From the NCBI RefSeq assembly GCF_000010625.1, contig NC_010296.1:2640001-2672000 (forward strand): a DNA stretch of 32,000 nt, given 5' to 3'. Under the pieces are notes generated by a model, which had not been told where the DNA came from, made no database searches, and was given only the letters and a program-made list of their open reading frames with translations. This stretch comes from Microcystis aeruginosa NIES-843 (GTDB taxonomy: Bacteria; Cyanobacteriota; Cyanobacteriia; Cyanobacteriales; Microcystaceae). Both the position numbers and the translations under genes were made by a program. This document shows positions 1,184 through 26,923 of this stretch, piece after piece (within the stretch, counting starts at the first letter, position 1; the number at the start of each line of letters is the position of its first letter).

Positions 1184-1188
1184 TAACC

Positions 1189-1845
1189 CTATATACTTTT
1201 GACTTTTTTATACTGTTCCGTCACGGCGGCATTTAATAGATCATCTTTAAAATCTCTGATTAATTTAATTACTAAATTATAAGTATTGATGTATTCTTCA
1301 TAATCGATAGTTAAATACTTGCCATGAGCAATTTTATTTCTTTGGGTGAGAAGTTGTTCATCAATAGCTTTCTGCCGCAGTTGATAATCACTATCATCAA
1401 TTCCTAGAATAGTACAGATATCAGTGAAAACTTCAAAATTGAGATTAGATTTGGTGTTAATAATATTTTCGTAGGGTATAGAAGCTCTATTTTCTAGGTT
1501 ATCAAGTAAATTTTTGATCATCTCTTTTTGTAACTTAAATTTATTGGTTTTTATTAACTCATTTATAGAACTTCTAGAACCAAGGGCAACGAAACAGTAA
1601 TCCAGTTCATGATAATTTAATTTTCTTAAGGAAACAAACTGCAAATAACATTCTGCTGCATATTTAATAAAACCTTCCCAATGGGCATAGAGAGTGGTTA
1701 TTCCGGCTCTAATTAATACATCTTGCTCAGTTCCTTTTTGTGGAGGAATTTTATTTTTTAAAATACTAAGTTCTTTAATTCGCCATGCCATATCTTCATC
1801 TAAGTTTTTCTGGAGAATTTCGATAGTTCTATTATCTTTACTCAT
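1189..1845 (-). CDS. HEPN-domain protein (RiboL-PSP / MAE_28990-type HEPN-like nuclease), 218 aa
   Basis: An R-x4-H HEPN motif, RNKIAHG, lies at residues 169-175 (nt ~1322-1341). YAHWEGF is present near the N-terminus. The start codon overlaps the stop of the upstream DUF262 gene (TAATG at 1845). The gene is very AT-rich. Confidence 0.75.
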   Translation of the reverse strand: MSKDNRTIEILQKNLDEDMAWRIKELSILKNKIPPQKGTEQDVLIRAGITTLYAHWEGFIKYAAECYLQFVSLRKLNYHELDYCFVALGSRSSINELIKTNKFKLQKEMIKNLLDNLENRASIPYENIINTKSNLNFEVFTDICTILGIDDSDYQLRQKAIDEQLLTQRNKIAHGKYLTIDYEEYINTYNLVIKLIRDFKDDLLNAAVTEQYKKVKSI

Positions 1846-2957: not shown

Positions 2958-3244
2958 CTTATAGCAGTTATCTTAATGGTGAAGTACAAAGTTTTCGTTT
3001 TGGGGAGCCGGTCGTCAGGATTCGATACCAAATTAGGTTACACTTCATCTTTAGAAACAAAGCTGTAATTTTTCTATACTCAGTATAATCTCTCTATTCT
3101 ACTTTTATACCATCAATGATGACTGAATGTGCCAATTTTAAAATGAAACGCGTCAACCTCAAGAGTTGACAGAAAAAGGCTCATCCCCGCAATTGGCACA
3201 AACATCAATTTTCAGGTGGCTAATCTGCAAAGACGCGATTTATC

Positions 3245-3602
3245 GAAAATTTGGGTTAAAACCCCGTCCTAAAAGGACGGCTTTAAGCTACAATGGAAAA
3301 AGCGATAACCAAGCTAAAAACTGAACCTTGACAACAGATAGTAGGGGGTTTTGTTCAGAAAAGAATTCAAATTCGGCCTTGAACGAGTAAAACTTTCTAG
3401 GAAATAAGGTTGAACATGAGATTTTTTCGACTTGTTCAAAGTGGCCGGAGGGCATCCGGACACTCAAAACGGACGTTGAGAAAGAGTCAGACTTAAGCAA
3501 TTAAGCGTTTTTCGGTGAAGCGTCAACCCCATTCAGCGACCACCCTAAAAAAGTGGCGTGGTGAGGAATCGCCGTCCGTTTTACGGCGGCGAGGATGTCA
3601 AG
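3245..3602 (+). mobile_element. ~360-bp internally deleted IS605-family (tnpB-only) derivative retaining both ends (PATE/MITE-like)
   Basis: The left part (cgaaaatttgggt..aaaccccgtc-N-gacggcttta...caATGGAAAAAGC) matches the left end and first four tnpB codons of the full element at 27749. The right end ggaatcgccgtccgttttacggcggcgaggatgtcaag (3565-3602) is identical to 29034-29071. Degenerate TnpB-tail-like coding (KVAGGHPDTQNGR.., SVKRQP) lies between. Confidence 0.55.
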
Positions 3603-4040
3603 TCCCGATATTGCGGTGATGTTAGCTTGGATTGAACAGGCAAAAATCCTCACCAGAGAGTTAAAATAAGCCCTATCTCCGATAATTTTGGCATAAATTA
3701 GCCAAAAGTAGTGCCATTCCATCCCCAAAGATCACCTTTCGTCTCGGCAAATTCTAGATAAATGCGATTTTTCGGTATTCCTAAATAAGCCTCAATTTCT
3801 TGACAAAAATCACTACTCATGCTTTTAGTTTGAGCGGCGGAAATAGAACCAACACTTTTAATCTCCACATAACACACCGGCTCAAAAGTACCAGCAAAAG
3901 TCATTTTTATACCCGATTCTAAAGCTGTCATCACATAGGATTCGGGTTTTCCCAGATGTTTAGCTAATTTAGCCGAAAGACTCTGCAAAAGTTGATTAAC
4001 CGTCTCATCATCGAGGGAGGTGACAGAAGTTTGAATTTTA

Positions 4041-4417: not shown

Positions 4418-4521
4418 GTCATACTAAATCCTGTTATTAAAAACTGATTATTTATTTCCCCTTTTGCCTCTTGCATGAGTGCCTCGTCTCATAACTAGCC
4501 TGTACTCAACGGATTTAGTAT
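4418..4521. mobile_element. ~100-bp MITE, copy 2 (same family as 1081-1183)
   Basis: gtcatactaaatccTgttattaaaaactgattatttatttccccttttgcctcttgc...tactcaacggatttagtat. Confidence 0.6.
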
Positions 4522-4569: not shown

Positions 4570-7500
4570 TTAAAAAGAATACACGGCTGTTTTGATATTT
4601 TGGTAGTTATCATCTAGATATGATTCTAGGAGAATAATCGCAGTAATTCTTCTAGTCATCTCGCTTACTTCCTGCACTTCTGCGATAGTTAATCCCCGTC
4701 CTAATAATTTTTCCTCGCGATAACTTAGCCATTTTTTAATAACTTGATAACCCCCGATGGTATATTCCCACACCCGGGATGGTATATTTTGCCAATAGGC
4801 TCGATCATTGAGATAAATATCATAGGTGGTCGTTCCTAATAATTTTCGCATTTCTGGGCTAATTACGCTCATTTCTGCGGTTGTATATTGTCTGGCGATC
4901 GCTTTTCCTTTACCCGGCATTGTCACACCATTTTTACCCCCATGTCCCCAACCGACGTTAATAATTAAATCCCCCTTATCTGGGTTTAAATTTCCCCCAT
5001 CAGTGCAGGAAATCAAGGCGATTTTTTGCAGTGCAGGGGTCGGTTTTTTGGTGACTCCTATAACGGGGTTTTCTGTGTCTAAAAGAGAGGCGATCGCTTG
5101 TCCTAGTTGGGCAGATTTAATTAATAATTCTTGGCTATTGGGAAGGGGAATTCTTGGGAAGTCTTGACGAATACCGTCGGCATTTTCCCGAAGATACAAG
5201 GGAGAGTACCCAATCGCTAACGAGTGCAGCCAAATTAAGGAGGCATTCTCGATATTTTCATCAATATTATTAATACCCAGTTGATTTAAGTATTGACGAG
5301 ATTTTTCCGAAAGATTGGCTTTTATTGAAGGACTATTAAAGTTACTGGAATCGAATAATTTTCCTTGAGTATTATCTTCTGTATTCACCTTCTCTGAATT
5401 TTGACGTAATCGTATAGGAAAGTGATAAGCATGACCTCTAATAAAGTCAAAGTCTCCTAAACAGTTAGTAAAATAAAATGGTATTCCTTCGGGAGAGGCA
5501 ACACCAGCAGGACGACTGACTAAAAAGGAATTACCTTGAAATTGATGAATAAATAGCGAAGGTCTAGACTCATTCCAAAGCGGTCTAATTTGAGTATAAT
5601 AACACCACTTAACCTCATAGGGTCTGAGCAGATAAGGTAACAGCATTTGAGGATTAAATTTTTTGCGTAACTTTAAGACTTTATCTCTGGCTTTTTTGGC
5701 ATCAAATCGAGCTGCATTTTTAGTTAAACCTGTATTAAGTGATGCTAATTCTTCCCATGAAACATTTTGATCAAAGTATTTACTTATCCTTTCCGAAAGA
5801 ATAGTTTTATCACTATCAATAAAACTATAGCCTCGATTCTCTTTATAACCTGTAATTGGAGCTTCATCAGATAAATCTGTTAACTTTGGCCATGCTAAAT
5901 AGTGAGAGGAAACATCGGAGGGACGGAAAGAATAACGATTAGATTGTTCTGGGTTAGAGACTTGATACAAAGCATCAAAATCTTGATTATTTAAACTATC
6001 TAATAACTGTTCTCGTTTAGCAACTCCCCAGAAATGGCGAAAATAGACATCAACATTTTTATTCCTTACTTCCTTTCTTACCATTAGTCCGATAGTTGTC
6101 CCGACTCGAATCCCTTCCTTATTGTATTGAGTAGAAAAAACACTAGGATCTGGATTACCTTCAGGGGTTAACTTTCCCGTTTCGCGACTATCCCCATTGA
6201 GACAATCAAACCAAAGGCGATCAAATTCTTGTAAAAATCTTTGCCGCATCACCACAAAAGAAGGATCACCGAGATAGGAAAAATTAGAAATATAACAAAC
6301 AACTCCTTTACCGGTATTTTCTGAAATACATCTTTCTGCTAAACGAAAAAAGCGCACATATAACTCATCCAAATTAAACTTTTTAATCCCCCAATCGGAG
6401 ATTAAACCCTGTTTATACACTTCCACTAAACCTGCTTCTTCCGCGGGACTGGTTCCAGCAAAAGCATTGTAGGGAGGATTACCGAGAATAACTAAAATCG
6501 GTTTACCGCGCTTAACTTCATCGGCTGCCTCTCGTTCCTTATTTAACTCTGGAAAACTTAATTGTAGCTGTTGAATTTTCTGTTTACTTTCCTCATCGGG
6601 AGGTTGCCAACCAGTTAAAGCATTAGTCAGATAAATCCCCACCCGTTCACTATCTTCTATTAAAGGTACACCCAAACTTTGCAGGAATAAACCTAATTGT
6701 AGATGAGCGACGACAAAAGGAGCGGTTAAAATCTCGAAACCGAAAATTCTTTCTATGGCTGCTTTTTTCACCAAAGCCATGGCTAAAGCACCCGCCCCAT
6801 TTTCCTGTAAAGTATCGGTAATATAGCGCAAAACCTCGACTAAATAAGCACCGGTGCCACAGCAAGGATCGAGAATATAAACATCGGGATTAGCTAAACC
6901 GTCCTCAATATTTAATTCTTCTCGTAAAACTCGATCGACTCGCGCTACCATATAGCGAACAATTTCCGGAGGAGTGTACCAAACTCCCAATTCTTTGCGT
7001 AAATCAGGATCAAAAGCTTGCAAAAATGGTTCATAGAAATACTGTACCGCTTGTCCCTCATCGAATTGACGAAAAAATTCCTCTCGTCGCACTCGATTTA
7101 AAGCTGCACCGGTCCAATTCAAAACTTCTACTAATCCCAAAGACTTTAACTTACTCGGTGCGGCGATCTGCTCGAATAGGATCGCTAACATGGGAACATG
7201 GAGATGGTGGGCTGCGGATTTCCAATCGAACTTATCCTCTTTATCCTCGCGATTGAGGTTTTGCTTGTGCCATAATACCCAAGCAGAAAATAAACCATAA
7301 AAGAGGGTTTGCACGAGGGTAGAACGGAAAAATTTATTTCCCTGTTCCCGTTCAAATTTGATACCGAGGGCATTTTCTAAAGCTTGACGGATATTGGCCA
7401 GAGCGGGAAGATCGGAATGATGTTCTAAGCGTGCTTTTGCGTCGCGCGCATAGGAAGCAAGAAACCAAGCAACATCGGCTGGTGAGGTGATAGGAGCCGC

Positions 7501-8034
7501 CTGTAAAAGCACTCTCTTTAGGTATTCTAAGAGGCTATCACCGTGTTCGGCGGCAAATTTGGATGGATTTGAGGTTTTTAGCCAAAACTCGGCTTCTGAC
7601 GGGGCTAAACTATAGGCTTCTAATTCCACCGGTTGACCTTGGCTATTGCGACCAATGAGCAGAAAATCGCGATAATTGGTGACTAATACTTGACCGTATT
7701 TTTGCCAGTATTTTTGTACTTGCTCGCTGGCGGCGATTTTTTTGATATCTTCTTTGGTTCCCTTAATCTCGATCGCACCTCTTTCGGGAAAAATCGCCGT
7801 AAAAGGTTCTAATTCTTGATTTTTTTGGAATTGATCGACGTTAAAAAGTCCCCCGTCCGGCAATCCCGCACCCTGATTTCTGAGGTTGATAATGCAGCGC
7901 ACTCGCGGTTTTAGGGTTTTACCGATTTCGTTAAGGAGAGTTTCGAGAGTGCCGTAGTAGGAGGTTTCTTTTACGGCTGCTTGGGAGGAGTGGATTTCGT
8001 GCAGGTTGCGAAAATAATTGACGAGGGGATTCAT
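4570..8034 (-). CDS. single-chain restriction-modification enzyme (type IIG / type ISP-like): N-terminal PD-(D/E)xK-like region, gamma-class N6-adenine methyltransferase, and ISP-type C-terminal specificity domain; 1154 aa
   Basis: Motif I DPCCGTGAYL (nt 6841-6870). Motif IV NPPY (nt 6469-6480). C-terminal VWEYTIGGYQVIKKWLSYRE tail typical of type ISP specificity domains. N-terminal LPD60GG...E89-I-K91 (nt 7753-7863). No helicase domain. Confidence 0.8.
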   Translation of the reverse strand: MNPLVNYFRNLHEIHSSQAAVKETSYYGTLETLLNEIGKTLKPRVRCIINLRNQGAGLPDGGLFNVDQFQKNQELEPFTAIFPERGAIEIKGTKEDIKKIAASEQVQKYWQKYGQVLVTNYRDFLLIGRNSQGQPVELEAYSLAPSEAEFWLKTSNPSKFAAEHGDSLLEYLKRVLLQAAPITSPADVAWFLASYARDAKARLEHHSDLPALANIRQALENALGIKFEREQGNKFFRSTLVQTLFYGLFSAWVLWHKQNLNREDKEDKFDWKSAAHHLHVPMLAILFEQIAAPSKLKSLGLVEVLNWTGAALNRVRREEFFRQFDEGQAVQYFYEPFLQAFDPDLRKELGVWYTPPEIVRYMVARVDRVLREELNIEDGLANPDVYILDPCCGTGAYLVEVLRYITDTLQENGAGALAMALVKKAAIERIFGFEILTAPFVVAHLQLGLFLQSLGVPLIEDSERVGIYLTNALTGWQPPDEESKQKIQQLQLSFPELNKEREAADEVKRGKPILVILGNPPYNAFAGTSPAEEAGLVEVYKQGLISDWGIKKFNLDELYVRFFRLAERCISENTGKGVVCYISNFSYLGDPSFVVMRQRFLQEFDRLWFDCLNGDSRETGKLTPEGNPDPSVFSTQYNKEGIRVGTTIGLMVRKEVRNKNVDVYFRHFWGVAKREQLLDSLNNQDFDALYQVSNPEQSNRYSFRPSDVSSHYLAWPKLTDLSDEAPITGYKENRGYSFIDSDKTILSERISKYFDQNVSWEELASLNTGLTKNAARFDAKKARDKVLKLRKKFNPQMLLPYLLRPYEVKWCYYTQIRPLWNESRPSLFIHQFQGNSFLVSRPAGVASPEGIPFYFTNCLGDFDFIRGHAYHFPIRLRQNSEKVNTEDNTQGKLFDSSNFNSPSIKANLSEKSRQYLNQLGINNIDENIENASLIWLHSLAIGYSPLYLRENADGIRQDFPRIPLPNSQELLIKSAQLGQAIASLLDTENPVIGVTKKPTPALQKIALISCTDGGNLNPDKGDLIINVGWGHGGKNGVTMPGKGKAIARQYTTAEMSVISPEMRKLLGTTTYDIYLNDRAYWQNIPSRVWEYTIGGYQVIKKWLSYREEKLLGRGLTIAEVQEVSEMTRRITAIILLESYLDDNYQNIKTAVYSF

Positions 8035-8124
8035 AAAAACTGTGGTCTAGATAATTAAGGTTAATCTTATAAAATTTTGTTACAAGATTGAACATTTCTG
8101 CTTTGAACGGTTACAATTCCCATT

Positions 8125-8241
8125 GTAGGTAGCCGGTTATATTTAAATTAAAAATCGATTTTAGGTTCGATCCCCCCTGCCCCCCTTATTAAGGGGGGTG
8201 CTGATAGGCGGGGGCTCTGATAATTTTTAACGCCTACCTAC
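8125..8241. repeat. MITE-like unit in the divergent intergenic region (imperfect TIR GTAGGTAGCCGGTTA / TAACGCCTACCTAC) with a G/C-rich central palindrome
   Basis: The inverted ends are read directly. The centre is ccccccttattaagggggg. A second copy at ~12599-12715 lies inside the duplicated block and differs mainly in the central palindrome. Confidence 0.35.
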
Positions 8242-8279
8242 TTAATTATTGATCTCTCTTGTTTTGGAGGAAATTAAAG

Positions 8280-10814
8280 ATGGCTGATTTTCTTGATTTC
8301 GTTGTTCGTGACAGTTTGCTCAATCCTCTTACTATCACGCTTTTATCTACAGATTTAGAACAAATTGACGAAGGAACAAGACATAGCATTGATGCTCAGA
8401 TTGATGACACAGATCCTCTTGGGCGTAAAGGTGCGATTTTAGCTGAGTCGGCGCAGGAAAATGACCTAAAGACAGGAAATTCCCAGTCTGTATCGCTTAA
8501 TACTAGCCAATCTCTAAGTTCTCTGGTTTCAAGTAACTTACAACACATTGCTGGGTGTAACTGCTCATTCTGCGCTCTTCCTCCATTTGATCCGAATCTA
8601 GTTAAGAATCAACCGAAACAGTCAGCCGCCACTGTATCAGCCGCTTTAAATCTATCTCAAACTTTCTCCCTTAACAGCTTAGCAGGAGCAAATCACACAA
8701 TTTATCTGGATTTTAACGGGCATACTACTTCTGGTACTTCTTGGAATACAGCCTATAATAAGGCTAATATTGTTACTCCTGCTTTCGATTTTGATGGCAA
8801 TACAGGGTCTTTTAGTAATGCTGAACTAGAAAGAATCCAGTATATTTGGCAGCGCGTGGCGGAGGATTTCATCCCCTTTAATGTTAATGTCACAACTCAA
8901 GCTCCAACGGATATCAATGATTTGATTAAAAGCGGTACTGGTGACACTCGCTGGGGTGTGCGTGTTGCTATTGGTGGGAGCAGTTATGACTGGTTCGGTG
9001 CTGGAGCAGGAGGAGTTGCCTACGTTGGTTCTTTTAACTGGAATAGTGATACTCCCACCTTTGTTTTTGATGACCAACTAGGTAATGGTAACGAAAAATA
9101 TACGGCTGAAGCTATTTCCCATGAAGTAGGACATACTCTCGGACTATCCCATGATGGACGAATTACCCCCAGTGAGGGATACTACGCAGGACATGGTAGT
9201 GGGGATACTGGCTGGGCACCAATTATGGGAGTAGGATACTATCAGAACCTATCCCAGTGGAGTAAAGGGGAGTATGCTTCCGCTAATAATACTCAAGATG
9301 ATTTGCAAATTATTACCACCCAAAATGGTTTTGGCTACCGAACCGATGATACTGGCAATACAATTGCTACTGCGAAAGCATTAACGGTTTCTGGTGCTTC
9401 TGTTAGTGGTAATGGTATCATTGAGCGCAATACGGATGTAGATTTCTATAGTTTTACTACAGGTGCGGGTGCGATTAGTTTGACGGTGAATCCATTTAAT
9501 CGTGGACCAAATTTAGATATTTTGGCAGAGTTATACAATTCTGCGGGAACTCTAATTGCATCATCTAATCCGACGGATTTATTATCAGCAAATATTACAG
9601 CAAATGTCGCAGCCGGAACCTATTACCTCAAAATTGACGGTATTGGGAAAGGTAATCCTCTTACTACTGGTTACACAGATTACGGTAGTTTGGGGCAGTA
9701 TTCGATTAGTGGTTCAGTTTCTAGTCCTTCTAAAGATATTTTCATCCGTAGTCCTCAATATGCAGGATTATTAACCTATAACGGTTCGGGCTTTCAACCT
9801 AACTCGATTCAGTATGACTGGATCGGCGGCTGGAAACTTGGTTCAGGGGATAAACATTTGGCGGGTGACTTCGATGGTAATGGTAAAGATGACGTTTTCA
9901 TCCGTAGTCCTCAATATGCAGGATTATTAACCTATAACGGTTCGGGCTTTCAACCTAACTCGATTCAGTATGACTGGATCGGCGGCTGGAAACTTGGTTC
10001 AGGGGATAAACATTTGGCGGGTGACTTCGATGGTAATGGTAAAGATGACGTTTTCATCCGTAGTCCTCAATATGCAGGATTATTAACCTATAACGGTTCG
10101 GGCTTTCAACCTAACTCGATTCAGTATGACTGGATCGGCGGCTGGAAACTCGGTTCAGGGGATAAACATTTGGCGGGTGACTTCGATGGTAATGGTAAAG
10201 ATGACGTTTTCATCCGTAGTCCTCAATATGCAGGATTATTAACCTATAACGGTTCGGGCTTTCAACCTAACTCGATTCAGTATGACTGGATCGGCGGCTG
10301 GAAACTCGGTTCAGGAGATCAACACTTTGTGGGTGACTTCGATGGTAATGGTAAAGATGACGTTTTCATCCGTAGTCCTCAATATGCAGGATTATTAACC
10401 TATAACGGTTCGGGCTTTCAACCTAACTCGATTCAGTATGACTGGATCGGCGGCTGGAAACTCGGTTCAGGAGATCAACACTTTGTGGGTGACTTCGATG
10501 GTAATGGTAAAGATGACGTTTTCATCCGTAGTCCTCAATATGCAGGATTATTAACCTATAACGGTTCGGGCTTTCAACCTAACTCGATTCAGTATGACTG
10601 GATCGGCGGCTGGAAACTCGGTTCAGGAGATCAACACTTTGTGGGTGATTTTAACAACGATGGCAAAGATGATGTTTTCATCCGTAGTCCTCAATATGCA
10701 GGATTATTAACCTATAACGGTTCGGGCTTTCAATCTAACTCGATTCAGTATGACTGGATCGGCGGCTGGAAACTCGGTTCAGGAGATCAACACTTTGTGG
10801 GTGATTTTGCCTAG
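8280..10814 (+). CDS. metzincin-type zinc metalloprotease, paralog A: ~130-aa leader/propeptide, catalytic domain, PPC (pre-peptidase C-terminal) domain, 7 FG-GAP/VCBS-like repeats of 52 aa
   Basis: HEVGHTLGLSHDG matches HExxHxxGxxH(D), and APIMGVG is a candidate Met-turn. The PPC-like segment reads DVDFYSF...GTYYLKIDG. The seven repeats each carry GDFDGNGKDD. ATG 8280 has GGAGGA 8 nt upstream; the listed ORF starts at an upstream TTG (8259). Confidence 0.8.
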   Translation: MADFLDFVVRDSLLNPLTITLLSTDLEQIDEGTRHSIDAQIDDTDPLGRKGAILAESAQENDLKTGNSQSVSLNTSQSLSSLVSSNLQHIAGCNCSFCALPPFDPNLVKNQPKQSAATVSAALNLSQTFSLNSLAGANHTIYLDFNGHTTSGTSWNTAYNKANIVTPAFDFDGNTGSFSNAELERIQYIWQRVAEDFIPFNVNVTTQAPTDINDLIKSGTGDTRWGVRVAIGGSSYDWFGAGAGGVAYVGSFNWNSDTPTFVFDDQLGNGNEKYTAEAISHEVGHTLGLSHDGRITPSEGYYAGHGSGDTGWAPIMGVGYYQNLSQWSKGEYASANNTQDDLQIITTQNGFGYRTDDTGNTIATAKALTVSGASVSGNGIIERNTDVDFYSFTTGAGAISLTVNPFNRGPNLDILAELYNSAGTLIASSNPTDLLSANITANVAAGTYYLKIDGIGKGNPLTTGYTDYGSLGQYSISGSVSSPSKDIFIRSPQYAGLLTYNGSGFQPNSIQYDWIGGWKLGSGDKHLAGDFDGNGKDDVFIRSPQYAGLLTYNGSGFQPNSIQYDWIGGWKLGSGDKHLAGDFDGNGKDDVFIRSPQYAGLLTYNGSGFQPNSIQYDWIGGWKLGSGDKHLAGDFDGNGKDDVFIRSPQYAGLLTYNGSGFQPNSIQYDWIGGWKLGSGDQHFVGDFDGNGKDDVFIRSPQYAGLLTYNGSGFQPNSIQYDWIGGWKLGSGDQHFVGDFDGNGKDDVFIRSPQYAGLLTYNGSGFQPNSIQYDWIGGWKLGSGDQHFVGDFNNDGKDDVFIRSPQYAGLLTYNGSGFQSNSIQYDWIGGWKLGSGDQHFVGDFA
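9741..10814 (+). repeat. coding tandem array, 7 x 156 bp (52 aa); units 1-2 are 100% identical
   Basis: ttcatccgtagtcctcaatatgcagg recurs at 9741, 9897 and onward with a 156-bp period. Two subtypes are visible: GDKHLAGDFDGNGKD (units 1-3) and GDQHFVGDF.. (units 4-7). Confidence 0.95.
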
Positions 10815-10817
10815 CAC

Positions 10818-10855
10818 GATCGCCTTTATGTGAACTGAAATTCCCAAAGGCGATC
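10818..10855 (+). terminator. 10-bp inverted repeat (gatcgccttt ... aaaggcgatc) just after protease A; a possible terminator with no T-tract
   Basis: Stem 10818-10827 / 10846-10855, 18-nt loop, overlapping a HIP1 site. Weak as an intrinsic terminator. Confidence 0.25.
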
Positions 10856-10934
10856 GCCTTACATGAAACAAAATTTTAAAATGCGATCGCCTAAAAAACC
10901 CTAATTGGGGGGAGCGTTGACATTATCTTAGTCT

Positions 10935-11011
10935 TAGGAGGTTTCTTTTACCGCTGCTTGGGAGGAGTGGATTTCGTGCAGGTTGCGAAAATAATTGACG
11001 AGGGGATTCAT
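10935..11011 (-). pseudogene. 77-bp remnant of the RM gene 5' end (codons 1-25, then stop)
   Basis: The reverse complement reads ATGAATCCCCTCGTCAATTATTTTCGCAACCTGCACGAAATCCACTCCTCCCAAGCAGCGGTAAAAGAAACCTCCTAA. This is MNPLVNYFRNLHEIHSSQAAVKETS*, nearly identical to 7958-8034. Confidence 0.85.
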
Positions 11012-11324
11012 TAGGAGTGTTGTAAAAATCAAAAATTGTTGTTAGGGTTAGGAGTCAGGAGTCGGTCGTCAGGAGTCAGGAGAATTAAGAATGAATAATA
11101 ATTAACTAAATAGTCTATTTACATATTTTATGCCATTTAATCCTTATTTTTGCCATTTTTGAACCCTCAAAAATTAATTATCGGTCGCAACTAGCTTCTG
11201 AAGCCTAATCCTGGTCAGGCGTTTGCTTACTGGCCCTCTCTACTCGCACTTAGAAGTTAATTGAATGGAAAGAGCTTCTACGGTACAGTGAAAGTTAACG
11301 TTACTGTTGGAAAAACCTAATCCC

Positions 11325-11753
11325 ATGAATCGTCGTGAATTTGTTGCCCTCGTTGGTGTTGGCGGAGCCATGGCCTGCGCCCCAGAAATCCTAGCGACGG
11401 CTACCGACCAAGAGATGACCCCGGCCCAAGCGGCGGATGGCTTTGTGAAAGTGACGGGCATTACCCTCAAAGAATTGGAAGCCAAAGGCAGTTTTCTGGA
11501 TAAAAAATCCCCGGTCGGCTCCTTGCTCCTGATCTGGGAGAAAAAGACGAAAAAGATCAGTGCAGTAAACCCGACTTGTACCCATGAAGGCTGTACGGTG
11601 AAATGGGATACTGGCGCACAGATTTTAGCTTGTCCCTGCCATACGGGAAAATTTACCGCCACTGGGGTCGTCACGAATAAACCCCCAAAAGGCAATCTAA
11701 CCACCTATCAAGTCAAGGTCGAAAAAGACGTTATTTTCGTGAAAAAAGCTTAA
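11325..11753 (+). CDS. small Rieske [2Fe-2S] protein with a twin-arginine signal and possible lipobox (PetC3-like)
   Basis: MNRREFVALVGVGGAMAC carries the RR motif and an AMAC lipobox-like end. The Rieske ligand boxes CTHEGC and CPCH are present. ATG 11325 is preferred over the listed TTG 11307. Confidence 0.85.
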   Translation: MNRREFVALVGVGGAMACAPEILATATDQEMTPAQAADGFVKVTGITLKELEAKGSFLDKKSPVGSLLLIWEKKTKKISAVNPTCTHEGCTVKWDTGAQILACPCHTGKFTATGVVTNKPPKGNLTTYQVKVEKDVIFVKKA

Positions 11754-11812
11754 CGGGGTTGACGGAATACTGGATTAGGCATAATTGAGGAAAAACTCGC
11801 ACAATTTCGGTT

Positions 11813-12003
11813 TCAGACCTCTGCGGCTTTTTCTGGCTCAATCTCGGTCTCCAATTCTTGACGTAATTCTTCTAGAGAAGTGGTAGCAGCTGTCTGAGAT
11901 AATCTTTCGAGTTTCCCAGTTCTACTTGTTCTAAAACCTGAAGAAAATGTTCTTGTGCTTGGGTATAGCTAGTATAGGTGGTGGGGATGGGCAGCATAGC
12001 CAT
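11813..12003 (-). pseudogene. Phd/YefM antitoxin gene copy with a 142-bp internal (frameshifting) deletion
   Basis: 11767-12033 aligns with 16309-16719 except that 16453-16594 is missing. The junction is gataatctttc|gagtttccc. Confidence 0.8.
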
Positions 12004-12026
12004 TAATCAACTCCGCAGTCAAAAAA

Positions 12027-12509
12027 TTAATCATTGGATGGATTTGAGGTTTTCAGCCAAAACTCGGCTTCTGACGGGGCTAAACTATAGGCTTCTAATT
12101 CCACCGGTTGACCTTGGCTATTGCGACCAATGAGCAGAAAATCGCAATAATTGCTGACTAATACTTGACCGTATTTTTGCCAGTATTTTTGTACTTGTTC
12201 GCTGGCGGCGATTTTTTTGACATCTTCTTTGGTTCCCTTAATCTCGATCGCACCTCTTTCGGGAAAAATCGCCGTAAAAGGTTCTAATTCTTGATTTTTT
12301 TGGAATTGATCGACGTTAAAAAGTCCCCCATCCGGCAATCCCGCACCCTGATTTCTGAGGTTGATAATGCAGCGGACTCGCGGTTTTAGGGTTTTACCGA
12401 TTTCGTTGAGGAGAGTTTCGAGAGTGCCGTAGTAGGAGGTTTCTTTTACTGCTGCTTGGGAGGAGTGGATTTCTTGCAGGTTGCGAAAATAATTAACGAG
12501 GGGATTCAT
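12027..12509 (-). pseudogene. truncated duplicate of the RM gene: N-terminal 158 aa (PD-ExK-like region only) plus 2 novel codons, ORF intact
   Basis: There are 4 substitutions (H12Q, I97V, T119S, R122C) over 158 aa relative to 4570-8034. Homology ends at 12034, where the sequence switches to the yefM upstream region. The promoter-side sequence is almost identical to that of the full gene. Confidence 0.8.
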
Positions 12510-12753
12510 AAAAACTGTGGTCTAGATAATTAAGGTTAATCTTATAAAATTTTGTTACAAGATTGAACATTTCTGCTTTGAACGGTTACAATTCCCATTG
12601 TAGGTAGCCGGTTATATTTAAATTAAAAATCGATTTTAGGTTCGATCCCCCCTACCCCCCTTAATAAGGGGGGCAGGGGAGGCGGGGGCTCTGATAATTT
12701 TTAACGCCTACCTACTTAATTATTGATCTCTCTTGTTTTGGAGGAAATTAAAG

Positions 12754-15396
12754 ATGGCTGATTTTCTTGATTTCGTTGTTCGTGACAGTTTGCTCAATCC
12801 TCTTACTATCACGCTTTTATCTACAGATTTAGAACAAATTGACGAAGGAACAAGACATAGCATTGATGCTCAGATTGATGACACAGATCCTCTTGGGCGT
12901 AAAGGTGCGATTTTAGCTGAGTCGGCGCAGGAAAATGACCTAAAGACAGGAAATTCCCAGTCTGTATCGCTTAATACTAGCCAATCTCTAAGTTCTCTGG
13001 TTTCAAGTAACTTACAACACATTGCTGGGTGTAACTGCTCATTCTGCGCTCTTCCTCCATTTGATCCGAATCTAGTTAAGAATCAACCGAAACAGTCAGC
13101 CGCCACTGTATCAGCCGCTTTAAATCTATCTCAAACTTTCTCCCTTAACAGCTTAGCAGGAGCAAATCACACAATTTATCTGGATTTTAACGGGCATACT
13201 ACTTCTGGTACTTCTTGGAATACAGCCTATAATAAGGCTAATATTGTTACTCCTGCTTTCGATTTTGATGGCAATACAGGGTCTTTTAGTAATGCTGAAC
13301 TAGAAAGAATCCAGTATATTTGGCAGCGCGTGGCGGAGGATTTCATCCCCTTTAATGTTAATGTCACAACTCAAGCTCCAACGAATATCAATGATTTGAT
13401 TAAAAGTGGTAGTGGTGACACTCGCTGGGGTGTGCGTGTTGCTATTGGTGGGAGCAGTTATGACTGGTTCGGTGCTGGAGCAGGAGGAGTTGCCTACGTT
13501 GGTTCTTTTAACTGGAATAGTGATACTCCCACCTTTGTTTTTGATGACCAACTAGGTAATGGTAACGAAAAATATACGGCTGAAGCTATTTCCCATGAAG
13601 TAGGACATACTCTCGGACTATCCCATGATGGACGAATTACCCCCAGTGAGGGATACTACGCAGGACATGGTAGTGGGGATACTGGCTGGGCACCAATTAT
13701 GGGAGTAGGATACTATCAGAACCTATCCCAGTGGAGTAAAGGGGAGTATGCTTCCGCTAATAATACTCAAGATGATTTGCAAATTATTACCACCCAAAAT
13801 GGTTTTGGCTACCGAACCGATGATACTGGTAGTACAATTGCTACTGCGAAAGCATTAACGGTTTCTGGTGCTTCTGTTAGTGGTAATGGTATCATTGAGC
13901 GCAATACGGATGTAGATTTCTATAGTTTTACTACAGGTGCGGGTGCGATTAGTTTGACGGTGAATCCATTTAATCGTGGACCAAATTTAGATATTTTGGC
14001 AGAGTTATACAATTCTGCGGGAACTCTAATTGCATCATCTAATCCGACGGATTTATTATCAGCAAATATTACAGCAAATGTCGCAGCCGGAACCTATTAC
14101 CTCAAAATTGACGGTATTGGGAAAGGTAATCCTCTTACTACTGGTTACACAGATTACGGTAGTTTGGGGCAGTATTCGATTAGTGGTAGTATTAGTAACT
14201 CATATGGAAACTTGACAGTAACAAACCAATTTATCGGAGATTTTGCCTCTTGGTCTGCTAACTCAAACGTAAGGGTATTAACGGGTGATTTTAACGGTGA
14301 TGGTAAAACAGATGTGTCCCTAGTCAATCAGTCCGCAGGATGGAGTACATTGCCCGTAGCTTTCTCTCAAGGAAATGGGAATTTTTCCGTAACAAACCAA
14401 TTTATCGGAGATTTTGCCTCTTGGTCTGCTAACTCAAACGTAAGGGTATTAACGGGTGATTTTAACGGTGATGGTAAAACAGATGTGTCCCTAGTCAATC
14501 AGTCCGCAGGATGGAGTACATTGCCCGTAGCTTTCTCTCAAGGAAATGGGAATTTTTCCGTAACAAACCAATTTATCGGAGATTTCGCCTCTTGGTCTGC
14601 TAACTCAAACGTAAGGGTATTGACGGGTGATTTTAACGGTGATGGCAAAACAGACGTATCTCTAGTCAATCAGTCCGCAGGATGGAGTACATTGCCCGTA
14701 GCTTTCTCTCAGGGAAATGGGAGTTTTTCCGTAACAAACCAATTTATCGGAGATTTTGCCTCTTGGTCTGCTAACTCAAACGTAAGGGTATTAACGGGTG
14801 ATTTTAACGGTGATGGTAAAACAGATGTGTCCCTAGTCAATAAATCCGTAGGATGGAATACATTGCCAGTAGCTTTCTCTCAAGGAAATGGGAGTTTTTC
14901 TGTAACAAACCAATTTATCGGAGATTTTGCTTCTTGGGCTGCTAATCCGGGTGTTGACGCACTAACAGGTGATTTTAACGGCGATGGTAAAACGGATGTG
15001 GCCCTAATCAATAAATCCGCAGGATGGAATACATTGCCAGTAGCTTTCTCTCAAGGAAATGGGAGTTTTTCTGTAACAAACCAATTTATCGGAGATTTTG
15101 CTTCTTGGGCTGCCAACCCGAACGTAAGGGTACGAACGGGTGATTTTAACGGTGATGGTAAAACGGATGTGGCCCTAGTCAATCAGTCCGCAGGATGGAA
15201 TACATTGCCAGTAGCTTTCTCTCAAGGAAATGGGAGTTTTTCTGTAACAAACCAATTTATCGGAGATTTTGCTTCTTGGGCTGCTAACCCGAACGTTAAC
15301 GTACTAACAGGTAATTTTAATGGTGATAGTAAAACGGATGTGGCTCTAGTCAATCAGTCCGCAGGATGGAATACATTGCCTGTGGCTTTTTTCTAG
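12754..15396 (+). CDS. metzincin-type zinc metalloprotease, paralog B: same leader, catalytic and PPC domains as A, but 7 unrelated FG-GAP/VCBS-like repeats of 57 aa
   Basis: The first ~478 codons differ from paralog A at 3 residues. After ...GSLGQYSISGS the sequence switches to repeats carrying LTGDFNGDGKTDV. Confidence 0.8.
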   Translation: MADFLDFVVRDSLLNPLTITLLSTDLEQIDEGTRHSIDAQIDDTDPLGRKGAILAESAQENDLKTGNSQSVSLNTSQSLSSLVSSNLQHIAGCNCSFCALPPFDPNLVKNQPKQSAATVSAALNLSQTFSLNSLAGANHTIYLDFNGHTTSGTSWNTAYNKANIVTPAFDFDGNTGSFSNAELERIQYIWQRVAEDFIPFNVNVTTQAPTNINDLIKSGSGDTRWGVRVAIGGSSYDWFGAGAGGVAYVGSFNWNSDTPTFVFDDQLGNGNEKYTAEAISHEVGHTLGLSHDGRITPSEGYYAGHGSGDTGWAPIMGVGYYQNLSQWSKGEYASANNTQDDLQIITTQNGFGYRTDDTGSTIATAKALTVSGASVSGNGIIERNTDVDFYSFTTGAGAISLTVNPFNRGPNLDILAELYNSAGTLIASSNPTDLLSANITANVAAGTYYLKIDGIGKGNPLTTGYTDYGSLGQYSISGSISNSYGNLTVTNQFIGDFASWSANSNVRVLTGDFNGDGKTDVSLVNQSAGWSTLPVAFSQGNGNFSVTNQFIGDFASWSANSNVRVLTGDFNGDGKTDVSLVNQSAGWSTLPVAFSQGNGNFSVTNQFIGDFASWSANSNVRVLTGDFNGDGKTDVSLVNQSAGWSTLPVAFSQGNGSFSVTNQFIGDFASWSANSNVRVLTGDFNGDGKTDVSLVNKSVGWNTLPVAFSQGNGSFSVTNQFIGDFASWAANPGVDALTGDFNGDGKTDVALINKSAGWNTLPVAFSQGNGSFSVTNQFIGDFASWAANPNVRVRTGDFNGDGKTDVALVNQSAGWNTLPVAFSQGNGSFSVTNQFIGDFASWAANPNVNVLTGNFNGDSKTDVALVNQSAGWNTLPVAFF
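14218..15396 (+). repeat. coding tandem array, 7 x 171 bp (57 aa); units 1-2 are 100% identical
   Basis: gtaacaaaccaatttatcggagatttt recurs at 14218, 14389 and onward. Sequence grades from the SWSANSNVRVL/VSLVNQSAGWST type (units 1-3) to the SWAANPNV/VALVNQSAGWNT type (units 5-7). Confidence 0.95.
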
Positions 15397-15536
15397 CGCT
15401 ATCGCCTTGACGTAAACTCTGAAAATATGGAACGCAATCGCCTAAAAAACCCTAATTGGGGGGGAGCGTTAACATTATCTTAGCCTTGGCAGTAGCTGAC
15501 TGGGTGAGGGGGTCATCAGGATTTTAGCAGACTTAG

Positions 15537-15749
15537 CTTGAAGTAACGGTTAAATTTCTGGAATCCATTATCCGTAAACCAGAAAAAAACTTCTGGTTTA
15601 CGGATAATTTACAAGGAGATGTCAAGCAATTAAAGAATTTTACCCCTAATTATCGCTTAAGGGTGGGTAACTATCGAATTCTATTTGAGGTTGAAGAAAT
15701 CACTTTAGTGATTTATCGTGTTAAACATCGACAAAATATCTACAATTAA
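15537..15749 (+). pseudogene. RelE/ParE-family toxin remnant lacking a start codon
   Basis: The frame is open from 15537 with no ATG or GTG near its 5' end. The C-terminus ...NYRLRVGNYRILFEVEEITLVIYRVKHRQNIYN* is typical of RelE/ParE. Confidence 0.6.
15568..15607. repeat. perfect 17-bp stem / 6-nt loop palindrome
   Basis: ttatccgtaaaccagaa aaaaac ttctggtttacggataa. It lies inside the RelE-like remnant, about 170 bp downstream of protease B. Confidence 0.9.
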
Positions 15750-15764
15750 ATTAAGGAGAAAACA

Positions 15765-15965
15765 ATGATTGAATTACATCCTGAATTCTTAATCAAAAAT
15801 GGCAAAAAAGAATTTGCTGTTTTAACTTATGAGGAGTTTATGAAAATTAAAGAAATCTTAGAAGACTTAGAGGATTTGGAAGATTTAATACAGGCAAAAG
15901 AAGAAGAAAAAGATAGTCAAACTTATTCTCTAGATGAGGTTAAGAAGATGCTAAATATTGATTGA
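15765..15965 (+). CDS. small acidic antitoxin-like protein (Phd/YefM-like N-terminus), 66 aa
   Basis: AGGAG lies 8 nt upstream of the [31 protein letters not shown] resembles antitoxin helices. It sits 15 nt downstream of the toxin remnant. Confidence 0.5.
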
Positions 15966-16183
15966 TTGCTTGTATCTTGCTTTAATTCTACTATTTCGCA
16001 GATGGGAAAAAATAGAGTTCCCCTTGTATCTCTAAATCTGGCTCGTTTTCCTACTTTTCGACAGTTTTCGTCTATTTCACAAGAATATACACAGTCATAA
16101 CCAACGCTCTCGAAAGCTAATCTAAATCCTCCAATACCAGCAAAAAGATCGATAAATCTGAGTTTTTCGTTTGTCATTGCCAA
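15923..16183 (-). pseudogene. C5-cytosine DNA methyltransferase remnant with an in-frame deletion of the catalytic PCQ motif and a 3' truncation
   Basis: [37 protein letters not shown]|[25 protein letters not shown] aligns with M.HhaI motifs I-II, then jumps to the GK.KGF.D.RGTLFF segment. About 38 residues including the PCQ catalytic motif are missing (junction ~16051). The ENV motif and everything after it are absent. Confidence 0.8.
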
Positions 16184-16356
16184 ATTATGACATCAAAGAT
16201 AGCCAAAGTGAATATATCCTAAATTTTAGCAAATGTTCCGACTTATGCAGCGATAAAAACTGTAGTCTAAATAATTAAGGTTAATATGTCCCCATATAAT
16301 CAATTTGGAGATACTAGATTAGGCATAATTGAGTAAAAATTCGCACAATTTCGGTT

Positions 16357-16689
16357 TCAGACTTCTGCGGCTTTTTCTTGCTCAATCTCGGTCTCCAATT
16401 CTTGACGTAATTCTTCTAGAGAAGTGGTGGCAGCTGTCTGAGATAATCTTTCTTGTGACCAATTTAAGGACTGAAAAAGTCGTTGAGCGTTAGCTGGAGA
16501 GCGCAAAAGATAAACTTCTTCTAATAAAGCGGATAATTCGTCAGCAGCAATCAAGGCCACATCATGATGACCCTGACGTTGGACAATAACGATCGAGTTT
16601 CCCAGTTCTACTTGTTCTAAAACCTGAAGAAAATGTTCCTGTGCTTGGGTATAGCTAGTATAGGTGGTGGGGATGGGCAGCATAGCCAT
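16357..16689 (-). CDS. Phd/YefM-family antitoxin, apparently orphan
   Basis: The N-terminal YTQAQEHFLQVLEQVELGNSIVIVQRQGHHDVALIAADELSALLE is Phd/YefM-like. No toxin ORF lies in the 170 bp downstream. Confidence 0.75.
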   Translation of the reverse strand: MAMLPIPTTYTSYTQAQEHFLQVLEQVELGNSIVIVQRQGHHDVALIAADELSALLEEVYLLRSPANAQRLFQSLNWSQERLSQTAATTSLEELRQELETEIEQEKAAEV

Positions 16690-16757
16690 TAATCAACTCC
16701 GCAGTCAAAAAATTAATCAATGGGTGCGTTAACAAAGCGTAACGCACCCCAAAGAAA

Positions 16758-19700
16758 TTACACCGAAGTTAAGGTTTTCTCCGCGCTAATTTGCGCTTCG
16801 GGACTATCCGCTTCCGAGGGAGGGACCACTTGCCAGAATTGACCGAGATAGCTATCCCAATTAGCTAAAATTAACTTACCTTTGGGGCTATTAGTGCGTT
16901 CTACATGGGCCTCAATTAAAGATTTTAACTGTTCCGCACCAGCAGCCGTGCCAACCCGTTGAATCTTGACAATTTCGGGGTTGAGTTTCTCCGGTAGGGA
17001 CGGATCAAGGATATAAGCTAATCCTCCCGTCATCCCGGCGCCGACGTTGCGACCGACGGAACCAAGCACGACAATTACCCCCCCGGTCATATATTCACAG
17101 AGGTGGTCCCCGGCCCCTTCGATAACTGCTTTCGCAGTGGAATTGCGGACAGCAAAACGTTCACCAGCGCGACCATTAGCGTATAACACCCCACCGGTGG
17201 CCCCGTAGAGACAGGTATTACCGATGATAGCGTTATCTTCGGGCTGATAATTGGCGTTTTGGGGCGGTAAGATGACGATTTCGCCGCCGTAGATGCCTTT
17301 ACCCACATAATCGTTAGCTTCTCCCTCTAAATGGAGATTGACACCGGGTAAATTAAATGCTCCGAAACTTTGACCGGCCGCACCCTGGAAATTGAGCTTA
17401 ATTTCGCCTTCAAAGCCGTCATTACCGTATTTTTGGGCAATTACCCCCGCAATTCTCGCCCCCACGGAGCGATCGGTATTGACAATCCTGTAGGTTTTGC
17501 TGACGGTTCCCTGTTGCTCGATCGCCTGTTTAATCTCGCTATCTGCTAGAATCTCGTCATCGAGGACAGCACCGTTACTATGTACTTCCTCGTGCTGCAA
17601 CCAAGAGCGATCGCTACGGCCATCGGGTAAATTCAACAAACAATCAAGATTGAGGGATTCTGTCTTAGTTAAACGAGCATCGGAGCGCACTTTTAACAGA
17701 TCTGCCCGGCCAATCACCTCATTTAAACTGTGATAGCCTAATTTCGCTAATAATTGCCGCGTTTCCTCGGCCACCAAAGTAAAGAAATTGACCACATGAG
17801 CGGGAATTCCTGGAAAACGAGTGCGGAGACGTTCCTGCTGGGTAGCGACTCCCACAGGGCAATTATTCGTGTGACAGACGCGGGCCATGATGCACCCCTC
17901 GGCAATCATGGAAATGGAACCAAAACCGAATTCCTCCGCACCCATCAGAGCAGCCATGAGGATATCCCAACCGGTTTTTAGTCCTCCATCTGCGCGCAAA
18001 ATCACCCGATGACGCAGTTGATTTTCCATTAACATCCGATGCACTTCCGTTACTCCCAATTCCCAGGGACTACCTGCGTGTTTGATCGAACTTAGGGGTG
18101 ATGCACCTGTACCACCATCGTGGCCAGAAATCTGGATAATATCAGCGTTAGCTTTGGCAACTCCGGCCGCAATTGTGCCGATACCGATCTCGGCCACTAA
18201 TTTGACGGAAACTTTGGCCCGGGGGTTAATTTGGTGTAAATCGTAGATTAATTGCGCTAAATCTTCGATCGAGTAGATATCGTGGTGAGGAGGGGGAGAA
18301 ATCAAAGTTACTCCCGGTTTTGATCGCCGTAACATGGCAATATAGGAACTGACTTTTTTCCCGGGTAATTGACCTCCTTCTCCCGGTTTTGCTCCCTGGG
18401 CCATTTTAATCTCTAGCTGTTTTCCACTCATTAAGTATTCGGGAGTGACTCCAAAACGACCCGAAGCTATCTGTTTAATGGCAGAATTAGCCGTATCACC
18501 GTTTTTTAAGCCGTTTAGATGGGGCATAGTCACGGAATGTCCTTCTGCATCCACATCGCTTAAGCTGGTGTAACGGATCGGATCTTCTCCCCCTTCTCCG
18601 GAATTGGACTTACCTCCGATGCGATTCATGGCGATCGCTAGGGTTTCGTGTGCTTCCCGGCCCAAGGCACCGAGGGACATTCCCCCTGTGCAGAAGCGTT
18701 GCAGGATACTTTCGATCGATTCTACTGCTTCGATGGCAATTGAGGCTCGATCGCTGTTAAATTCTAATAAATCGCGCAATGCAGTAACGGGTCTTTGCTG
18801 CAAGATTTGGCGATAGGTTTCGTAATGGTCATATCCTTCCCCTTGGGAGTGAGCGGCCACGGCTTTATGGAGTGCTTTCGCCATTTCTGGGGAATTCATG
18901 TGGTATTCTCCCCCCGGACGGTAGTTGACAAAACCGTAGTTTTCTAGTTTTTTAGCGGTAAGATTGGGAAAAGCTTTGCTGTGGAATGCGATCGCTTCTT
19001 GGGCCACTTCAGCAATGCTTAAACCCCCGACGCGACTGGTAGTACCGTTAAAAGCTAGTTTAACTAAATCTGCCGACAGACCGATCGCCTCGAAAATTTG
19101 CGCCCCATGGTAGGAAGATAGGAGAGAAATACCCATTTTCGAGAGGATTTTCAGTAATCCTGCTTCTACGGATTTGCGGTAATTAATTAGGGCTTTTTCG
19201 AGGCTAATAGCTTCTAATTTGCCATTTTCCATCAATTTCTGAGTTTTTGGCTCGATCCACCACTGGGCGATCGTTTCTAGGGCCAGATAGGGACAGACTG
19301 CGGAAGCGCCATAACCAATTAGACAAGCGAAGTGATGGGTACTCCAACATTGGGCCGTGTCGATAACGATCGAAGCTTTTAAACGCAAGTGTGAGCGAAT
19401 CAGGTGATGATGGACGGCACCAACAGCTAATAAGGGGGGAATATAGCTAGTTTTTTCGTCAATAGGAGCAGTCCTGTCACTGAGAATTAAAATTTCCGCT
19501 CCCGATGCTACTTTCTTGGCGGCCTCAGCGCACAAATGAGCGATCGCGGTTTCTAATCCCCCCGGTCCGGTGGTCAGATCATAAAGGGTAGAAAGTTCGG
19601 CTGTTCTGTAGCTAGAGGTTTTAACTTTGGCTAATTCCGCATTATTGAGCAGGGGAGAGTCTAATTTCAGTAAATGTGCGTCATCAACCCCTAATTTAAG

Positions 19701-26865: not shown

Positions 26866-26923
26866 GATGCTCTCCTTATTGAATTTGTTGGATTTGAGAA
26901 CTGCTTACCTAAGTTGAGCTAAC

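Follow-up and report, generated by a model that had tools for sequence, protein, structure and literature searches.

A tandemly duplicated metalloprotease gene of Microcystis aeruginosa with two alternative predicted beta-propeller cassettes

Introduction

O-antigen and capsule loci are examples of idiomorph-like cassette polymorphism, as are the swapped receptor-binding domains of phage tail fibres: a single locus is occupied by alleles without homology to each other, and recombination homogenises the flanks; as homogenisation extends up to the cassette borders, identity breaks off sharply there. Here we describe a locus of Microcystis aeruginosa NIES-843 that differs from such cassettes in that what varies is one domain within a protease gene and that a single genome carries two of the alleles in tandem. 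The locus lies within 32,000 nucleotides of contig NC_010296.1 (assembly GCF_000010625.1, positions 2,640,001 to 2,672,000, forward strand); this whole stretch is called the window, and all coordinates refer to it. Two neighbouring genes of the window encode nearly the same putative protease and end in two different arrays of repeated units, A and B. We read the locus as a modular protease gene, of leader, reprolysin-like metalloprotease, PPC domain and putative calcium-binding propeller, set between a defence island with a restriction-modification (RM) gene and the ferredoxin-GOGAT (Fd-GOGAT) gene.

Highly repetitive propellers of VCBS/FG-GAP blades, defined by a median internal blade identity above 60%, are documented in cyanobacteria, together with near-identical paralogues that differ only in blade number (Pereira & Lupas 2022, PMC9218822). 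The arrays described here resemble such amplified propellers in the DxDxDG motif of each blade, in internal identity far above 60%, in having seven blades and in a blade number that appears to vary between close relatives. They differ in that whole blade families differ (24-37% identity) in the same frame, on a protease, with at least five types sharing one locus, and in that the catalytic module is swapped as well. With the Rhs and CdiA polymorphic toxins (PMC3150448, PMC3967940) the locus shares a constant N-terminal part, a demarcating motif (here GSLGQYSISG) and non-homologous C-terminal cassettes. In both, recombination between repeated conserved parts can alter the expressed C-terminus, and a displaced C-terminal remnant may lie downstream, as in a related locus of M. 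wesenbergii (L165, see below); none was recognised in the window. In contrast to these toxins, the variable part is an FG-GAP propeller and no immunity gene follows it. Moreover, whereas an Rhs orphan is without initiation and export signals and is activated by recombination with the main gene (PMC3967940), the second copy described here is whole and is preceded by an upstream region of its own. Among the window's identified genes, none pointed to type VI secretion or to a two-partner-secretion context. The locus is a variant that combines two known kinds, recently amplified propellers and C-terminal cassette polymorphism. In the literature searched, Microcystis was not mentioned together with FG-GAP or VCBS.

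The explanation that we consider probable is that the propeller is a cassette exchanged at the level of the population by recombination in conserved flanks, and that two alleles have been kept in the window strain by a tandem duplication. An original prediction, made by a model from the letters of the window without database searches, had proposed that the propeller is swapped as a cassette and that recombination between the repeats would be a one-step switch. The exchange of cassettes is upheld at population level, by array types A-E, by type C in one related contig (L167) and by a relic of B in L165; a programmed one-step switch is not.

Results

Two proteases share one module and part at a single codon

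In a BLASTN comparison of the window with itself, positions 7559-9713 and 12034-14187 form a direct repeat of 2155 aligned columns with 98.886% identity (23 mismatches and one gap of 1 nt), at an offset of 4475 and then 4474. Each copy comprises the first 476 nt of the minus-strand RM gene, the whole 224-bp divergent intergenic region and the protease leader, catalytic and PPC modules. Protease A (8280-10814, plus strand) consists of a 57-aa leader (8280-8452), a metzincin and PPC module (8453-9713) and array A; in protease B (12754-15396, plus strand) the leader and the metzincin-PPC module are the same and array B comes next. The open reading frames (ORFs) themselves begin slightly earlier, at 8259 and 12733, and the ATG at 8280 agrees with the annotated starts of homologues (MADFLDF...). 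The protease copies are separated by three amino-acid changes (D to N, T to S and N to S, at nucleotides 8910, 8938 and 9358) and two synonymous differences (at 8933 and 9356), and the RM fragments by four amino acids. Divergence within the 2155 bp is uneven, with 11/476 bp in the RM fragment against 5/1455 bp in the protease module. Identity breaks at 9713/14187, directly after GSLGQYSISGS. The repeat and its offset, the amino-acid changes and the abrupt stop had all been read correctly in the original prediction, as had the numbers and lengths of the repeat units that follow.

Past the break, cassette A (9714-10814, plus strand) consists of a linker and seven 52-aa FG-GAP units (7 x 156 bp, array at 9739-10808), and cassette B (14188-15396, plus strand) of a linker and seven 57-aa FG-GAP units (7 x 171 bp, array at 14204-15389). 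At the DNA level the units of A are 85-100% identical to one another and those of B 81-97%, above the 60% mark for highly repetitive propellers. Array A opens with two identical units and a third that is off by 1 nt; units 4 and 5 form another identical pair, and units 6 and 7 have diverged further. Array B carries position-specific variants in units 5-7 (DAL, RVR and NVNVLTGNFNGDSKTD). The 3'-terminal units are the most diverged in the arrays. Pfam finds 6-7 FG-GAP or FG-GAP_3 repeats per protein (FG-GAP 8.7e-29 and FG-GAP_3 5.5e-25 in protein A; FG-GAP_3 6.3e-36 and FG-GAP 7.7e-32 in protein B), and every full unit has a cation loop of the DxDxDG type, GDFDGNGKDD in A and GDFNGDGKTD in B. 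The blade family of array B is widespread on many enzymes (3210 matches), that of array A rare (166 matches).

Structure prediction assigns both arrays, with high confidence, to seven-bladed, lectin-like beta-propellers. AlphaFold2, run with homologue alignments, gave for each a closed ring of 28 strands in seven four-stranded blades, with a predicted local distance difference test (pLDDT) score of 91.5 and a predicted template modelling (pTM) score of 0.88 for A, and 94.9 and 0.91 for B. The original prediction, which had named the modelling of the C-terminal parts as a check, is thereby borne out in its picture of a constant 5' module with two alternative seven-bladed propellers. When the models were searched against the PDB with Foldseek, the first matches for both were the seven-bladed integrin-like N-acetylglucosamine lectins AAL-2, PAL and PVL (E 1e-12 to 1e-15, TM 0.63-0.70); next came the glycan-binding propeller of Streptomyces UmbA4, and after it CRTAC1 and integrin alpha chains. 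Taking UmbA of the Streptomyces umbrella toxin particles (PDB 9oee), in which a lectin propeller is combined with a protease-like domain, together with the three fungal lectins, the best superpositions reach E 1e-11 to 1e-15 and TM 0.53-0.70. The arrays differ from these proteins in that sequence identity is only 17-23%, in that the catalytic partner is a metzincin or S8 protease, and in that ligand binding is predicted; the window showed no partners of an umbrella particle. From the fold matches and the polymorphism described next, the propellers would bind glycans or other targets.

Array types in related Microcystis loci

The closest named proteins belong to M. wesenbergii and M. aeruginosa, and nucleotide identity between the window and Microcystis loci is 96-99.5% (loci are numbered below with L, proteins with P). 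A comparison across strains, another check that had been suggested, revealed that the cassettes vary while the 5' module is constant: five array types are joined to catalytic and PPC modules that are 97.8-99.2% identical to those of the window. Their units measure 52 aa in A, 57 aa in B, 53 aa in C and about 60 aa in D, and E is built of a two-unit super-repeat; the mutual identity of the types is only 24-37%. All five begin right after the same GSLGQYSISG motif, and for A, B and C homology of the flank resumes at the stop codon. In the more distant orthologues of Nostocales (68-81% identity) the GQY.ISG boundary is followed by a C-like array, by Calx-beta/RTX domains or by repeats of other kinds.

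Three loci are particularly informative. At the orthologous site beside Fd-GOGAT, M. aeruginosa GCA_004305995 (L164) has a single metzincin gene with array A, with a ParB-like gene upstream and without the RM gene. At the same site M. wesenbergii GCA_014696875 (L165) has the RM gene and then a single metzincin gene with array E. Homology to the window resumes there at 15211, after the stop codon of the E array plus 118 bp, with a copy of the last B unit that is not translated, bears the terminal-unit signature TGNFNGDSKTD and ends in VAFF and a stop codon; the B-side flank is next. We interpret this untranslated unit as the fossil of a replaced B array. The third locus, the ENA contig L167, matches window positions 7636-9713 at 99.4%, continues with a type-C array and then matches 10817-12174 at 98.8%, the second stretch spanning the shared flank, an RM relic, a Rieske gene, a deleted Phd fragment, the duplication junction described below and an RM fragment. 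The two sequences cease to be homologous exactly at the codon that follows GSLGQYSISGS and become so again at the stop codon. As L167 has C where the window has A, a second sample holds the duplicated frame with a different cassette.

The catalytic module varies as well. In the metagenome contig L166 the RM 5' end, intergenic region and leader match at 98%, and are succeeded by an S8 subtilase, six units of array B and the ParE-side flank at 98.5%; this layout indicates that the catalytic module has been swapped within the same RM/ParE frame. The same S8 C-terminus is joined to an A unit (P0041/L081) and to B with the Rieske-side flank (P0133/L082), and the unit order of the window's B array is also found behind the S8 subtilase in P0302 and P0133. 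All 23 sites that distinguish the two window copies are alleles segregating among other strains, which argues for recombination rather than private mutation.

Old tandem paralogues, with 5' halves kept alike by gene conversion and arrays that diverged in place through re-amplification of founder blades, would also give a constant module with two arrays. The uneven divergence is in keeping with this, the protease modules differing at 5/1455 sites against 11/476 in the RM fragment and 13/333 in the 3' collinear pieces of the two copies, and so are the near-identical blades within each array. Continuous blade amplification is documented (PMC9218822), and diverged tandem paralogues of the protease family occur in other phyla (L048, L057, L066, L075, L079). 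However, A and B recur with the same position-specific variants and the same ends in other strains and behind another catalytic module, and therefore the arrays predate the duplication and were not made in place. Moreover, type C fills the place of A in the duplicated frame of L167, the differences between the copies are polymorphisms shared with other strains and not private mutations, and the array types are only 24-37% identical. We consider an origin in old paralogues unlikely. Two narrower forms of divergence in place were rejected: point mutation, given that the flanks differ by 1-4% and the units are only 33% identical, and independent re-amplification as the sole cause, given that whole arrays with identical position variants recur behind S8 and in other strains.

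Several points weigh against an exchange of cassettes between strains as the full account. The protease modules of the window are 5/1455 bp apart, while they show 12-57 differences to any other strain; recent duplication, some intragenomic gene conversion, or both, contribute to their similarity, as modules closer to each other than to those of other strains imply. The comparison contigs are mostly short-read metagenome assemblies, in which arrays collapse and mis-joins inside repeats are possible. For this reason only the joins from module to first unit and from last unit to flank were trusted, and blade counts outside the window, where N runs and contig ends fall inside arrays, are unreliable. 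Furthermore, the second copy in the source strain rests on the given assembly and L167, and the leader alone had no family match in Pfam or NCBIfam at E values up to 10.

Blade counts of 3-6 in draft and metagenome proteins were rejected as real variation, the four units of P0240 being the four distinct kinds found among the seven of the window. Several FG-GAP array proteins (the P0004, P0010, P0032 and P0240 group) are named 'ribosome modulation factor' by JGI or UniRef and one B-type fragment is named 'predicted alpha/beta hydrolase'; both names look like annotation errors.

The tandem duplication and its junction

The direct repeat of 2.15 kb is real, but it had been taken for the whole duplication, and the event was larger, at about 4.5-4.7 kb. 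Similarity resumes collinearly three times downstream of the arrays: at 10880-10935 and 15431-15487 (91%), at 11767-11908 and 16311-16452 (96%) and at 11907-12040 and 16593-16726 (98%). The first of these had been noticed as a 3' flank of about 50 bp. The further matches, which extend the duplicated unit to about 16719, had been overlooked, as had a third copy of the RM start at 10935-11011. In a three-way alignment the junction was located at 12030-12040, where 16719 is joined to 7559 (now 12033|12034) through a microhomology of about 3-4 nt. To the left of the novel joint, ...TTAATCA|TTGGATGG..., the sequence continues that of 16676-16719, and to the right it is that of 7559 onward. The copies are thus arranged head to tail and are collinear, with one novel end-to-start junction, as in a tandem segmental duplication, and the collinear pieces with a single microhomology joint point to an illegitimate tandem duplication whose unit reached from 7559 to about 16719.

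Copy 1 now spans 7559-12033 (4475 bp) and copy 2 spans 12034-16719 (4686 bp). They differ in the array (A or B), in the segment past the shared flank and in a deletion in the Phd gene. The 3' flank common to arrays A, B and C (10815-10935) begins at the stop codon and includes sites of the HIP1-like form GCGATCGC; homology to L167 resumes in it at 10817. HIP1-type palindromes (GCGATCGC and degenerate forms) lie directly 3' of both array stops, at 10815-10900 and 15397-15450, with three in the A flank. Past the shared flank, copy 1 has an RM-start relic and, between the protease genes, the gene of a small Rieske [2Fe-2S] protein (11307-11753, plus strand; Pfam Rieske 2e-11), which also comes after the S8 gene with array B in L082 and after the metzincin gene with array C in L167. 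At the right end of copy 1 stands a degenerate Phd/YefM antitoxin gene with upstream DNA (11767-12033, minus strand), left by a 140-bp internal deletion as a truncated 43-aa ORF (11872-12003); the last two collinear matches correspond to the 5' part of this gene and its upstream DNA. In copy 2 the downstream segment (15397-16310, shared flank at 15431-15487) is 97.5-99.5% identical to L164 and L165 and holds a 5'-truncated ParE (15602-15752), a 66-aa ORF (15765-15965) and an 86-aa N-terminal fragment of a C5 cytosine methylase (15923-16183, minus strand). The intact Phd/YefM antitoxin gene (16357-16689, minus strand; Pfam PhdYeFM 7e-12) follows, and the copy ends at about 16719, just ahead of the Fd-GOGAT gene (16758-21362). 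The gene of the ParE toxin has lost its 5' end in the window and L165 but is intact (82 aa) in M. aeruginosa L164.

An assembly artefact, either a single gene wrongly doubled or the alleles of two strains stitched in tandem, would mimic such an arrangement. Arrays of this type routinely break or collapse in assemblies, as seen in N runs, contig ends and the four-unit P0240, and the exact sequences of both proteases, with TTG as well as ATG starts, and of the RM protein had no record in the collections searched. Against this, the unique junction and its flanks recur at 98.8% in the independent contig L167, in the order Rieske gene, deleted Phd fragment, joint and RM fragment. Together with the 23 sites at which the copies differ, this argues that the duplication is not an artefact, and the resolution of seven units of 98-100% identity suggests long reads. 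We regard an artefact as highly improbable.

The RM gene, the intergenic region and the question of a switch

The full-length RM-methyltransferase fusion gene (4570-8034, minus strand; 1154 aa, type ISP/IIG-like) is supported by Pfam Type_ISP_C (8.9e-32) and N6_Mtase (3.6e-9), and its first 476 nt are part of repeat copy 1. An orthologue adjoins the protease gene in M. wesenbergii L165; in M. aeruginosa L164 and in L085 the gene is absent and a ParB-like gene takes its place. The truncated RM 5' fragment in copy 2 (12027-12509, minus strand; 160-aa ORF) is without methylase or specificity domains, had no Pfam match and is probably a pseudogene. A 77-nt RM relic (10935-11011, minus strand), corresponding to the first 25 codons and 99% identical to 7958-8034, is found behind arrays in six contigs, including L081, L082, L083, L164 and L167. 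Three RM 5' truncation points stand beside protease units, at 7958 (the 77-nt relic), 7559 (the window and L167) and 7290 (L089), which indicates that rearrangements carrying the upstream region happened repeatedly. A 33-nt copy of the RM upstream region is found at 16253-16285.

Copy 1 of the divergent intergenic region (8035-8258) has promoter-like hexamers and a G/C quasi-palindrome at 8174-8205. The promoter-like sites at 8048 and 8088 recur in copy 2 at 12523 and 12563, and promoter and terminator scans returned the same candidate sites in both copies and nothing further. The G/C-rich hairpin (CCCCCC-TTATTAA-GGGGGG; 8174-8205 and 12649-12679) occurs in two states, with a right arm of either TGCTGATAGG or CAGGGGAGG, the latter lengthening the stem. 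Both states segregate, that of copy 2 in L084 and that of copy 1 in L165, L164 and L085. This polymorphism looks like a template-switch correction of the quasi-palindrome, and accounts for a cluster of 7 mismatched nucleotides and a small inverted BLAST match.

The original prediction had suggested that recombination between the 2.15-kb repeats would, in one step, place propeller B behind the full promoter region. In such a programmed or selectable switch, RecA-mediated recombination would delete 4.47 kb and change the displayed propeller. Direct repeats of 2.15 kb at 98.9% identity are indeed a good substrate for recombination, the Rhs loci offer a precedent for a C-terminal change driven in this way (PMC3967940), and single-copy loci are found in other strains (L164, L165). 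Copy B, however, is neither silent nor promoterless: it has the full intergenic region, the leader and the same promoter-like hexamers, so that a deletion would not newly link it to a promoter. Neither gene is damaged and neither shares its upstream region, which is full in each case; both can therefore be made. A deletion would, moreover, be irreversible and remove A and the Rieske gene too, and L164 is not the product predicted from repeat-to-repeat recombination, as it keeps A and the RM relic and then joins an intact ParE. The duplication is also stably present in a second sample (L167). No inverted repeats of at least 40 nt were found within 5000-18000, and among the 17 ORFs scanned with Pfam the only recombinase was TnpB (27839-28882), 12 kb away; within that scope the locus showed neither a site-specific recombinase with inverted repeats nor promoterless silent cassettes, by which programmed rearrangements are recognised. 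A switch is in our view distinctly unlikely, and we treat the instability of the locus as a generic property of a tandem duplication and not as a device.

The protease module and its leader

Both proteases contain the zinc motif HEVGHTLGLSHD, of the form HEXXHXXGXXH(D), and match Pfam Reprolysin_3 at 25.3 and 24.4 bits (cutoff 22.4), with Reprolysin_5 and Reprolysin_2 below their cutoffs. About 30 residues past the motif, inspection of the sequence found a candidate Met-turn residue in WAPIMGVGY. A PDB sequence search with the catalytic module returned only marginal reprolysin matches, the best around the motif being the snake-venom protein atragin (weak, E 0.25). The PPC domain scores 26.1 bits in protein A (cutoff 25.9) and falls under the reporting threshold in protein B, although the two are nearly the same in this part.

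The first 57 or so residues (MADFLDFVVRDSLLNPLTITLLSTDLEQIDEGTRH.IDAQIDDTDPLGRKGAILAES; 8280-8452 and 12754-12926) are common to the metzincin genes and the S8 subtilase genes (P0302/L166) and are unlike a Sec signal peptide. They may be an uncharacterised export or targeting leader. A double-glycine (C39/PCAT) leader is not claimed, LSTDLEQIDEG being off the LSxxELxxIxGG register. The product is probably exported and would act as a protease.

Mobile elements strike this protease gene family. In other samples the gene is split by a 370-aa transposase, IS630-like by eye (L093, 1452-2564), at about window position 8768, and a TnpB-like ORF either interrupts an A-type array or is fused to it (P0031).

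Other features of the window

A HEPN (RiboL-PSP / MAE_28990-like) and GmrSD_N (DUF262) gene pair is encoded on the minus strand (ORFs 1189-1845 and 1845-2957). L084 matches the window on both sides of 1081-3601 at 99.6-99.9% and carries different DNA inside it, which points to a swapped defence cassette. A 104-bp repeat (1081-1183 and 4418-4521, 86.5%) brackets the HEPN/GmrSD_N region and a MIF gene. Further direct repeats pair 26905-27023 with 31003-31121 and 3565-3603 with 29034-29072. Inverted repeats at 24817-25706 and 28495-29070 (78-91%) take in the 3' part of the IS605-type TnpB gene (27839-28882), whose domains are OrfB_IS605, HTH_OrfB_IS605 and Cas12f1-like TNB. A CsbD-like protein (ORF 25914-26432, minus strand) has two CsbD domains through an internal 144-bp direct repeat (25939-26243, 78%).

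Discussion

In the population-level exchange that we favour, the propellers would be idiomorph-like alleles (at least five, A-E) in one frame, which opens with the codon behind GSLGQYSISG and closes with the stop codon. Cassettes would pass between strains, and between paralogous protease genes sharing the leader, by homologous recombination in the flanks, and the catalytic module would be replaceable by an S8 subtilase behind the same leader. In the window strain a segment of about 4.5-4.7 kb would have been duplicated in tandem through one microhomology junction and two alleles kept. One copy would then have gained the other cassette with its 3' flank (A, the RM relic and the Rieske gene). 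Alternatively, the two copies may have been drawn from different allelic backgrounds; the replacement of the cassette may have come after the duplication or accompanied it. Within the arrays, blades would turn over by unequal crossing-over or recent amplification, with homogenisation.

The fold matches and the polymorphism suggest the function of a secreted protease steered by a propeller that binds glycans or other targets, with selection for diversity. A wider proposal, which we put forward tentatively and with considerable doubt, is a combinatorial specificity system spread over the population, in which one export leader, two protease types and at least five lectin-like propellers would be under diversifying selection, with duplications serving as a store of cassettes for recombination to expose or discard. 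For this proposal the three RM 5' truncation points count as evidence of recurrent duplication. Its roles may include the strain-specific recognition of mucilage or cell-surface glycans in colony formation, antagonism between strains, and interactions with grazers or phages.

Draft assemblies systematically collapse or break arrays of this type, and such loci are therefore likely to be under-reported. For the study of protein evolution, the locus is a natural example of one scaffold on which freshly amplified propellers from different blade families replace each other, with codon-sharp borders and the fossil of a replaced array still visible. Microcystis is a toxic bloom former, and its strains vary in the form of their colonies, in surface glycans and in their ecological interactions. 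With five unrelated lectin-like propellers and two types of protease fitted into one exact frame, the locus is a candidate determinant of strain specificity in this organism, and a possible typing marker.

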